Part shown: in pieces, positions 41,463 through 52,943 of the stretch
Numbering within the stretch: position 1 is the stretch's first letter
How the letters are laid out: every line of letters starts with the position of its first letter
Assembly (NCBI GenBank): GCA_963729045.1
Contig: CAVSMN010000020.1
Span: 96,001 to 160,000 of the forward strand
DNA from: an uncultured Nitrososphaeraceae archaeon
GTDB lineage: Archaea > Thermoproteota > Nitrososphaeria > Nitrososphaerales > Nitrososphaeraceae
DNA length: 64,000 nucleotides
Direction of reading: 5' to 3'
Translations under genes and position numbers: made by a program
The notes under the pieces: generated by a model
Databases searched by the model: none
Told to the model about the DNA's origin: nothing
The model's input: only the letters and a program-made list of their open reading frames with translations

Positions 41463-41536
41463 GGGATCATAGTCTAGCTTGGTATGATGCCAGCCTCGGG
41501 CGCTGGAGGTCGTCGGTTCAAATCCGGCTGATCCCA
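41463..41536 (+). tRNA. tRNA-Pro(CGG), intronless
   Basis: Acceptor GGGATCA/TGATCCC; anticodon arm CCAGC-CTCGGGC-GCTGG; T-loop GTTCAAATC; CCA not encoded; T-run follows. Confidence 0.95.
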
Positions 41537-47405: not shown

Positions 47406-47494
47406 TAGCCCGGCCCAGATTCGAACTGGGGTCAAAGGCTCCAAAGGCCTCTATGCTTGGCCACTACACTCGGCACTTGTAATACTACCGGGCT
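47406..47494 (-). tRNA. tRNA-Gln(UUG) with a 16-nt non-canonical intron (47469-47484)
   Basis: Acceptor AGCCCGG/CCGGGCT, anticodon arm GAGGC-CTTTGGA-GCCTT, T arm CCCAG-TTCGAAT-CTGGG. Removing TATTACAAGTGCCGAG restores D-stem GTGT/GCAT and a 73-nt tRNA. Confidence 0.92.
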
Positions 47495-47542
47495 TCCGGG
47501 CATTTTTATATTGTAAGTACGGACGTTATTAATTTTACGAAT

Positions 47543-48658
47543 CTATTTTTTATCAATTGTAGATACATAACTTACGAGTTTTTCAATTGGATCTTCCATT
47601 TTATTTAAAATCCTTGCAGCACGGTTTTGTATTAAAATGCATTCTCGCTCGTCGTCTAAGAATGATTTCAATAATTTGTCAATTTGTACTGGACTAGAAG
47701 CTTGAACAACTAATCCAATTTTTCTTAAATAGTCATCAATATAGAACTGAATTGGGGCTATAGAAATAGTTGGTTTGCCTAGTAGTGCAGACTCTGCAGT
47801 CATTGTGCCCCCTGCACCGACAAAAATATCAATATTATTTAGTAATTTAACTCCATCAACAACTTGTCTCAATACAACGGCTTTATTTCTGAATCTTTTG
47901 GACATTTCTGCAATTTGATCTGGATATCTACATAGAATAATGATGGCATTATTATCAGCAAAATTATTTACAATAAAATCTACTAAATCTAATGGTCGTA
48001 TTCGCAAATTCTTGTTAGATATATAGGCAGCCTTTGATTCTTCAAGTCTTATCAGGATAGTTTTTCGCGAGTGATCTATCTTTAACTCTTTCAAGAATTC
48101 AAAATCTTTATCTACTCGAGGTCGTTTCCTACCGTGCAGTCGGAAGGTAATTTCATCAATGTCTCGGCTCAACCATGCAACAGGATCTAAGCCCTTATAC
48201 CGAATGATTTGCTTAGATGATATGCCATATTTTTTCCAAGCAGAAATAGGTATGACAGATGGAGAAAATAACGTCGTTAACAAAGGAATAGTTAATCTTG
48301 CAACAGCTTCAGCATGTGGTGAATCATTGAAACCAATGTGATTTATTCCCAAACCAAAAGAAACTCTCGAAGCTTCAGGAGATGAAAAACTGATCACCAA
48401 ATTAGGTGAAAATTTTGAAATTATTTTAGCCAGTTCCATAATTCGCTTTGAACTTTGAAAGAGTTTATCAAAAAGATCTGATCCTCCATGGTTACCAATC
48501 ATCAAAAGATTCAACCCCATTAATCGTGATAATTCATTGGCTTCTCTATAATTTCGTGATGTACATAAGACCTCATGACCCTGTTTTTGTAATATGTTAA
48601 TCGCAGGTTTAAAAAACATTATTTGTTTGGGAGTCAGAATGTCAAACCAAATCTTCAC
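47543..48658 (-). CDS. DUF354 family protein (GT-B-like)
   Basis: MKIWFDILTPKQ, IGNHGG, FSSPEASRVSFGLG, NDSPHA, GAGGTMTAESALLGKP. Confidence 0.85.
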   Translation of the reverse strand: MKIWFDILTPKQIMFFKPAINILQKQGHEVLCTSRNYREANELSRLMGLNLLMIGNHGGSDLFDKLFQSSKRIMELAKIISKFSPNLVISFSSPEASRVSFGLGINHIGFNDSPHAEAVARLTIPLLTTLFSPSVIPISAWKKYGISSKQIIRYKGLDPVAWLSRDIDEITFRLHGRKRPRVDKDFEFLKELKIDHSRKTILIRLEESKAAYISNKNLRIRPLDLVDFIVNNFADNNAIIILCRYPDQIAEMSKRFRNKAVVLRQVVDGVKLLNNIDIFVGAGGTMTAESALLGKPTISIAPIQFYIDDYLRKIGLVVQASSPVQIDKLLKSFLDDERECILIQNRAARILNKMEDPIEKLVSYVSTIDKK

Positions 48659-51973: not shown

Positions 51974-52024
51974 CTCCTAAATTTACGCTATTTTTTCTTG
52001 AATGTAGAATTAATAACATTGAAG

Positions 52025-52943
52025 TTACCATACTGGAGTAACCCACGTATTAAAATCGGGTATTTGAGATACCACTATTTTTTGGTAGTAGTCAGAGATT
52101 TTTCTTGTAAATTCGCCAACTGTTCCGTTTCCAACTTTATGATTATCCACGCTTATTATTGGAGTAATTTCAGCTGCAGTACCTGTAACAAATATTTCAT
52201 CGGCAATGTATAATTCTGTACGGGTAATGGATCGCTCGCATACATCATAACCAAGATGTCTTTGCTATCGTGATAGCCGTATCCCTAGTTATTCCTTCAA
52301 GCACAGAATCCGATAATGATGGAGTATAAATCTTATTATTTCGAACTAGAAAAATATTTTCTCCTGGTGCTTCACTCACATTGCCATAATAATCGAGTAA
52401 TATCGATTCATCATACCCATTTCTTTTGCACTCTTGAGTAGCTAATACTGAATTCATATAATTTCCTCCAGCTTTTGCCATCGGTGGAGTAGAGTTCTCA
52501 TTTATTCGTCTCCATGAAGAAATGCATGTTCTTATCCCGGTTTCTGGAAAATATCTATCAAAAGGGAAAGCAATAATGGCTAGATGAGAAGGGGAGCGTT
52601 TAGTAACATTAAGATCTATTCCATGTAATCCAACAAATAATAAGGGCCTAATATAACAAGACTTTTTAATATTATTCTTCCTTAATAATTCAACAGTAGA
52701 TGTACACATTTCAGAAAGAGTATAATTTGAATTGATAGAATAGACCTCTGCAGACTGAAGTAATCTTTGCATATGCTCTTTAAGTTTAAAAATAAACAGA
52801 TTTTGATCATTTGAGTATCCCCTGATGCCCTCAAAGACTGACGTTCCGTAGTGTAACGCATGAGTCGTAATAGGAACGGTAACAGAATCCCATGATTTGA
52901 ATTCACCGTCAAACCAAATAAAATCAGCATTCTTAGTATTCAT
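52025..52943 (-). CDS. ilvE: Branched-chain amino acid aminotransferase; frameshift near 52262
   Basis: THALHYGTSVFEGIR, YIRP, AKAGGNY, EAPGENIF, LEGITR; continues in another frame as ELYIADEIFVTGTAAEITP…VTPVW*. Confidence 0.92.

Follow-up and report, generated by a model that had tools for sequence, protein, structure and literature searches.

The window, which is the whole 64-kb stretch of DNA analysed here, carries on its minus strand a tRNA-Gln(UUG) gene that, read from the sequence, runs from 47494 to 47406 (A1 = 47494, A73 = 47406). A 371-aa open reading frame ends upstream of it at 47543, and elsewhere in the window, at 41463-41536 on the plus strand, lies an ordinary intron-less tRNA-Pro(CGG) gene with an Rfam score of 61.3 bits. 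The tRNA-Gln gene was recovered only in part by the tRNA-finding programs, because a 16-nt insert sits between U8 and the D stem: ARAGORN reported only a truncated tRNA-Gln(ttg) at 47406-47475, and the Rfam tRNA model matched 47414-47470 with 35.2 bits (gathering score 29), covering model positions 9-63. Once the insert is removed, a cloverleaf with a UUG anticodon is regained and the spliced sequence equals that of intron-less orthologues. Sequence, ARAGORN, Rfam and orthologue comparison thus confirmed what an earlier note on this DNA had claimed, namely a tRNA-Gln gene with an intron between nucleotides 10 and 11. Exon 1 (AGCCCGGUAG, tRNA nucleotides 1-10) occupies 47485-47494 of the minus strand and is followed by the 16-nt intron (UAUUACAAGUGCCGAG) at 47469-47484. 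Exon 2, placed with the Rfam tRNA and ARAGORN tRNA-Gln(ttg) matches at 47406-47468, starts with UGUAG and holds nucleotides 11-73, that is, the remaining D arm, the anticodon arm with UUG, the T arm, the 3' acceptor strand CCGGGCU (47407-47413) and the discriminator A. The first base pair is A1-U72 (47494 with 47407), a GatDE identity element. Two strands of the same gene region can serve as partner of the 3' acceptor strand: the true 5' acceptor strand in exon 1 and a spare copy of it in the leader, which is the main subject of this work.

In the window gene alone, four splice registers are possible. The register was fixed by relatives and intron-less orthologues, since in L024, L026 and most relatives splicing at 10/11 is the only choice whose product matches the intron-less orthologues, AGCCCGGU(G/A)GUGUAG. 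With this register, nucleotides C5-U8 (47490-47487) pair with GCCG of the intron (47474-47471) to form the 4-bp central helix (H) between the two splice sites. The 5' bulge contains A9 and G10, and the 3' bulge the last two intron bases, AG (47470-47469); both bulges read AG/U with the splice site two bases beyond the central helix, and within the intron AUU and AGU (47483-47481 with 47477-47475) form an inner stem (h'). The outer exon-exon helix (h) is nearly absent, with C4-G12 as its sole pair and with C3/U13 and G2/A14 unable to pair, and the bulge-helix-bulge (BHB) is therefore of the relaxed HBh' kind rather than a strict hBHBh' motif. This anatomy is as the earlier note had described it, from the CGGU/GCCG helix and the AUU/AGU mini-stem to the weakness of the outer helix.

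The pairs of H are kept in all 68 unique intron-bearing genes that we collected from relatives, with CG at nucleotide 5 in 68 genes, GC (59), CG (5) or GU (4) at nucleotide 6, GC (67) or GU (1) at nucleotide 7, and UG (58) or UA (10) at nucleotide 8, while the intron length in these genes ranges from 14 to 59 nt. RNAfold applied to the inner parts of the introns gave at least 2 bp in just 31 of 68 because short A+U stems have positive energies, so h' was instead counted directly and compared with shuffled introns; at least three contiguous pairs were found in 53 of 65 distinct introns vs 6.8% of the shuffled ones. The source genome has two separate genes with an EndA domain (PF01974, 101.5 and 73.4 bits), which fits a two-subunit enzyme as far as the domain matches tell, and it also contains RNase P RNA. 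Judged from its sequence, the insert is a true relaxed EndA-type intron that falls within a known class as an ordinary representative, and it is predicted to be cleaved.

Non-canonical BHB introns are known in archaeal tRNA genes, and the sets of Thaumarchaeota and Crenarchaeota have been modelled in tRNAscan-SE 2.0 (PMC8450103); reviews are available (PMC4090602, PMC4033280). As described in the sections of these texts available to us, such introns share with the present one the short length, a position other than 37/38, a central helix of 4 bp with splice sites two bases further out, an inner stem and a lineage with two EndA-domain genes. The present intron differs from those descriptions, which in the same sections include no leader element, in that its H is made with the acceptor stem and is accompanied by a conserved spare strand upstream. 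As the earlier note had recognized, the motif consumes acceptor-stem bases; because H is built from acceptor nucleotides 5-8 and the intron, the splice motif and the native acceptor stem are mutually exclusive.

The spare strand is the hexamer GCCCGG at 47501-47496 of the minus strand. This hexamer repeats tRNA nucleotides 2-7 and is able to pair with nucleotides 66-71, as borne out by the sequence, its conservation and an RNAalifold consensus described below. It is separated from position +1 by a single A (47495) and preceded by AAAAAU (47507-47502), so that the duplicate noticed in the earlier note lies one base before the mature 5' end. GCCCGG occurs four times on both strands of the 64-kb window (shuffle mean 3.03), three of these at this locus, and simple arithmetic from the window counts gives a chance expectation of about 5 in 10,000 for a same-strand GCCCGG within 20 nt upstream. 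The leader pairing had been put at about 10 bp; its 6-bp G+C core is conserved, but the AAAU/AUUU extension is not conserved even in the genus because the trailers differ within it. The hexamer is kept in all 23 full-length loci of the same genus and also across families and classes. Among relatives the spacer varies from 1 to 13 nt, and the copy is therefore in no fixed register with the tRNA body; in many lineages it is lengthened to UAGCCCGG, which is able to pair also with U72 and A73.

Of 37 T-arm/acceptor candidates in the source genome, a few of which are not real tRNAs, only the window gene has a 6/6 match in its 20-nt leader. No leader copy was found among the examined tRNA genes of this genome whose introns lie elsewhere, in the D loop, the anticodon loop or the T loop (for example Arg(CCU), Asp(GUC) and Glu). 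The D-loop introns of tRNA-Arg(CCU) (C14:62197-62310) and tRNA-Asp(GUC) (C10:80292-80391), neither of which has a leader copy, restrict the Rfam matches of these genes to model positions 10-63. The second glutamine tRNA gene of the genome, tRNA-Gln(CUG) at about 52017-52160 on the minus strand of contig C15, shares the 10/11 intron; the leader in this case is UAGCUCG, which is unlike that of the window gene but nevertheless pairs with nucleotides 67-73 through one U.G. This gene has three introns (at 10/11, in the D-loop region and in the anticodon loop) and was missed by both ARAGORN and the Rfam search.

The earlier note had linked the leader to the intron, and we compared the two across relatives. 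For the order, we used an anticodon/T-arm pattern blind to both leader and intron, which matched 175 of 251 genomes, together with two family-level searches. Before counting, three loci representing the same places as others (L058, L087 and L110, identical to L029, L024 and L030, respectively), one without a proper tRNA-Gln (L105) and one at a contig end (L027) were dropped, and the counted set comprised 107 tRNA-Gln(UUG) loci, of which 63 have the 10/11 intron and 44 have no insert. A leader helix, defined as at least six contiguous pairs with the 3' strand within 30 nt upstream with G.U allowed, was present in 61 of the 63 intron-bearing loci vs 4 of the 44 intron-less ones (L032, L035, L060 and L095). 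The two intron-bearing exceptions have five pairs (L023) or a 1-nt deletion (L092). When the loci were parsed again together with phylum genes chosen by an intron-only pattern, all six core pairs were found in 63 of 69 intron-bearing vs 2 of 43 intron-less genes. The phylum sample itself consisted of 401 genomes, 34 of which had a match to the intron-only pattern; three matches were not tRNA and 37 were genuine genes. Among the 36 of these that were checked (all except G492:C35), all six core pairs are intact in the copies of 35, and the copy of the remaining one, in G081, has a 1-nt deletion; some of the spacers in this sample measure 7-12 nt. In every 10/11-intron tRNA-Gln gene inspected, there is a strand upstream with which the 3' acceptor strand could pair.

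A combined leader-plus-intron pattern run against all species genomes gave at least 120 stretches. Among the matches listed were records titled Nitrososphaeraceae, Nitrosocosmicus, Nitrososphaera, Nitrosopolaris, a few Nitrosopumilaceae, Bathyarchaeia, Brockarchaeota, Methanomethylicia and, in one case, Hadarchaeota. By these sequence matches, the spare acceptor strand with this intron occurs widely within Thermoproteota and also outside it. Two of the matches listed, from Burkholderiaceae and Methanoperedens, were rejected as chance, and L125, L127, L180, L185-L187, L243, L271, L314 and L315 were excluded as chance pattern matches outside tRNA genes.

Intron-bearing and intron-less genes coexist in families f4, f10, f13 and f18. 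In f18, where L076 has the copy GGCCCGG, the intron-less L075 reads AGGCTCAG at the corresponding place, and in f4 the copy of L087 is absent from the intron-less L085, as though one repeat unit had been deleted. Sequence comparison of these orthologous pairs shows that the copy decayed or was deleted following intron loss. A perfect copy without the 10/11 intron was seen in three genes. One of them, L133 of family f33, lacks the intron of L132 and retains the copy, which probably reflects a recent intron loss. The other two, L128 (G396) and L129 (G426) of family f53, have instead a D-loop intron with its central helix on nucleotides 10-13 as the sole intron near the 5' end, and their copies are left unexplained by the model proposed below. 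In L129, a further insert separates the T arm from the 3' acceptor strand. Weaker look-alikes of the copy are present in the intron-less L053, L060 and L122. One ancient origin followed by losses would fit these data.

The way in which the leader varies points to a pairing partner. All interior leader variants are C-to-U changes that keep a U.G pair with G68-G70 (GUCCGG in L068, GCUCGG in L070 and L071, GCCUGG in L078 and L099), and mismatches occur only at the ends of the helix (ACCCGG and GCCCGA). In family f15, acceptor pair 6:67 is C:G instead of G:C, and in both isoacceptors the leader (GCCCCG), the exon (GCCCCG), the 3' strand (CGGGGC) and the intron (GCGG) have changed jointly. The covariation for which the earlier note had proposed a test is present as wobble-compatible or compensated leader changes. 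Because the acceptor stem is almost invariant, truly independent events are few, namely a single flip from G:C to C:G plus four or five changes to wobble pairs; the relatives are not independent of one another, and the whole pattern may stem from one ancient origin. Immediately ahead of the hexamer, 35 of the 68 genes have A, 19 have U, 9 have G and 5 have C, and this variation speaks against reading the copy as the actual position 1. An RNAalifold consensus of 20 genes with a 1-nt spacer contains the six pairs between leader and 3' strand in 20 of 20 and the pairing of nucleotides 5-8 with the intron in 20 of 20, and the native acceptor stem is absent from it. The leader was misaligned in the MAFFT alignment because the spacer lengths differ, and pairs were counted by scripts instead.

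The position of the promoter suggests that the copy is part of the transcript. A TATA/BRE-like box (AAAATTAATAA), predicted to be the tRNA promoter, is located at 47526-47536 of the minus strand, with 24 nt from the end of the box to GCCCGG. Spacing was measured in genes whose 60 nt upstream contain a single A/T-only run, a sample that includes loci chosen for having the copy and is informative on spacing only. For 57 intron-bearing genes, the median distance from the end of this TATA-like run is 24 nt to the hexamer, with 48 of them falling in the range of 21-25 nt, and 31 nt to +1; for 15 intron-less genes, the median distance to +1 is 28 nt (interquartile range 25-32). At the usual archaeal distance between box and start, the transcript would begin at or just before the copy. 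The box is thus spaced relative to the copy and not to +1, from which the copy is predicted to be transcribed, with a predicted start at or just before its first base. A sigma-70 promoter/terminator scan, whose model is not applicable to archaea, returned nothing.

Predicted folding energies add to this picture. Over 63 genes with the leader present, the fold containing the leader helix and H was better than the native-stem fold by a mean of 2.0 kcal/mol, and with the leader removed the H fold was a mean of 4.5 kcal/mol worse than the native one, being worse in 62 of the 63. Unconstrained minimum free energy (MFE) structures contained the leader helix in 57 of 63 genes and H in 46 of 63. In this model, the splice-competent fold is predicted to be favoured only when the leader is present. 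The MFE structure of the window sequence alone shows both the leader helix and H, with a folding energy that is not significant against shuffles (z = -1.41; 17 of 200 fold as well). After in-silico splicing, the leader-paired fold was still better by a mean of 1.1 kcal/mol in the nearest-neighbour model, and secondary-structure energies alone therefore fail to explain native refolding. The return to the native fold would then be driven by restored D-arm tertiary contacts or by irreversible RNase P cleavage of the native conformer.

The anatomy of the gene, its conservation, the co-occurrence with the intron, the compensatory and wobble changes and the predicted energies support the interpretation put forward in the earlier note, in which the leader would hold the 3' acceptor strand so that the BHB can form. 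The comparative checks suggested in that note left this interpretation unrefuted. In the model that we propose, the primary transcript would start about at the upstream spare copy of the 5' acceptor strand, which would capture the 3' acceptor strand as it emerges. The local hairpin of nucleotides 5-8 with the intron would thus not be displaced, and EndA cleavage at both sites would be possible. Once the exons are ligated, the true 5' strand, having lost its intron partner, would retake the 3' strand, and RNase P would then cut off the leader. Taken as a whole, a spare strand that frees the splice motif is in our judgement the best explanation of the observations, and we hold it with fair confidence.

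A different role for the same pairing would be quality control, in which the leader hides the acceptor end from RNase P, 3' trimming, CCA addition or aminoacylation until the intron has been spliced out and formation of the motif is not its task. All of the comparative evidence for pairing applies equally to this reading, and the leader-paired fold, still competitive after splicing, could serve as a timer. It gives, however, no reason why the copy should track this very intron, whose H needs nucleotides 5-8, when the examined tRNAs of the source genome with D-loop, anticodon-loop and T-loop introns have no copy, nor does it account for the predicted penalty of 4.5 kcal/mol on the splice-competent fold without the leader. 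We consider quality control unlikely as the explanation, although the two roles do not exclude each other.

It is very improbable that the copy is neutral and functionless, left behind when the intron arose or when a small tandem duplication took place. In favour of this reading, the copy is a short direct repeat adjoining its source, and one lineage seems to have lost one repeat unit cleanly (L085 compared with L087), in the manner of replication slippage; against it, the copy has been kept in other classes and, within the order, in no fewer than ten families while every adjoining leader base and the spacer length turned over, its variants are wobble-compatible or compensated, and it decays upon intron loss. 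We see equally little chance that the hexamer acts as DNA and not as RNA, whether as an initiator, as an element close to the promoter or as a site for protein binding. The tight distance of 21-25 nt from the TATA-like box speaks for such a role, but the hexamer covaries with the acceptor stem in f15, tolerates only changes that preserve pairing with the 3' strand and is missing from intron-less tRNA-Gln genes with the same promoter type. Finally, although either copy can pair with the 3' strand, we rejected as extremely improbable that the upstream copy is the real 5' acceptor strand and the downstream AGCCCGG part of a second, larger intron, since the base before the upstream copy varies whereas the downstream copy invariably reads AGCC(C/G)G followed by U8, the spacer length varies between 1 and 13 nt, U8 and nucleotides 9-10 would be missing if the upstream copy were joined to the tRNA body, and no BHB can be drawn for such an intron.

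The spare strand that we propose as a helper of splicing invites comparison with split and permuted tRNA genes of Nanoarchaeum, Caldivirga, Thermofilum and Cyanidioschyzon, which have complementary leader and trailer flanks (PMC3218864, PMC4090602, PMC4033280). From the portions of these articles available to us, the systems are alike in that sequence outside the mature tRNA is conserved since its pairing lets the splicing endonuclease act. In split and permuted tRNAs, as described there, the flanks pair together and form the BHB that is cut, whereas in the present gene the leader pairs with nucleotides 66-71 of the mature tRNA, outside the BHB, and both splice sites lie within the gene body. 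The leader would also be removed by RNase P here, unlike the flanks in those descriptions. In its working, the proposed arrangement recalls attenuators and riboswitch expression platforms, in which two strands compete for one partner and thereby decide the next step; the likeness would be one of working only, there being no ligand or ribosome here, and the reset would be removal of the intron.

A full-text literature search, with several primary papers outside its reach, did not turn up any description of an acceptor-strand copy in a leader, nor do the accessible portions of PMC4090602, PMC3293823, PMC4033280, PMC8450103, PMC3218864 and PMC3241643 mention one. As far as could be found, the conserved spare acceptor strand is apparently undescribed in print. 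If the model holds, it would explain how a protein-spliced intron can persist where its splice signal competes with the acceptor stem of the tRNA itself, and a conserved, sequence-defined helper in the pre-tRNA leader would be a new component of archaeal tRNA maturation. Under the model, splicing is predicted to precede 5' trimming. A broader statement could equally well prove right or wrong: spare acceptor strands would be a general and ancient cis-acting folding switch of archaeal pre-tRNAs, in which a false 5' strand at the 5' end permits a BHB intron on acceptor nucleotides, enforces splicing before RNase P and resets itself by strand exchange, with the tRNA-Gln version older than the split of Nitrososphaeria, Bathyarchaeia, Brockarchaeia, Methanomethylicia and Hadarchaeota and with analogues for other tRNAs.

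For annotation, tRNA finders truncate or miss genes of this type, and the leader copy can be mistaken for an exon; a decayed or deleted copy in intron-less relatives could serve as a marker of intron history. Partial tRNA genes of another kind were also met. Within the same genus, L115 (G015), L117 (G022), L118 (G013) and L116 (G009) are lone tRNA-Gln 3' halves, from the anticodon arm to A73, beside non-tRNA DNA, and the half in L118 is followed by a trailer similar to that of the window gene; they look like attachment-site duplicates from elements integrated into tRNA-Gln. Several partial copies of the 3' end of tRNA-Gly(CCC), ending in GCGGGTTCAAATCCCGCACTTCGCA followed by CTTTT, are present in the source genome (C13:97621-97693, C13:98988-99008, C13:105968-106034, C10:149254-149309 and C10:168832-168926), and these likewise look like attachment-site repeats of integrated elements.
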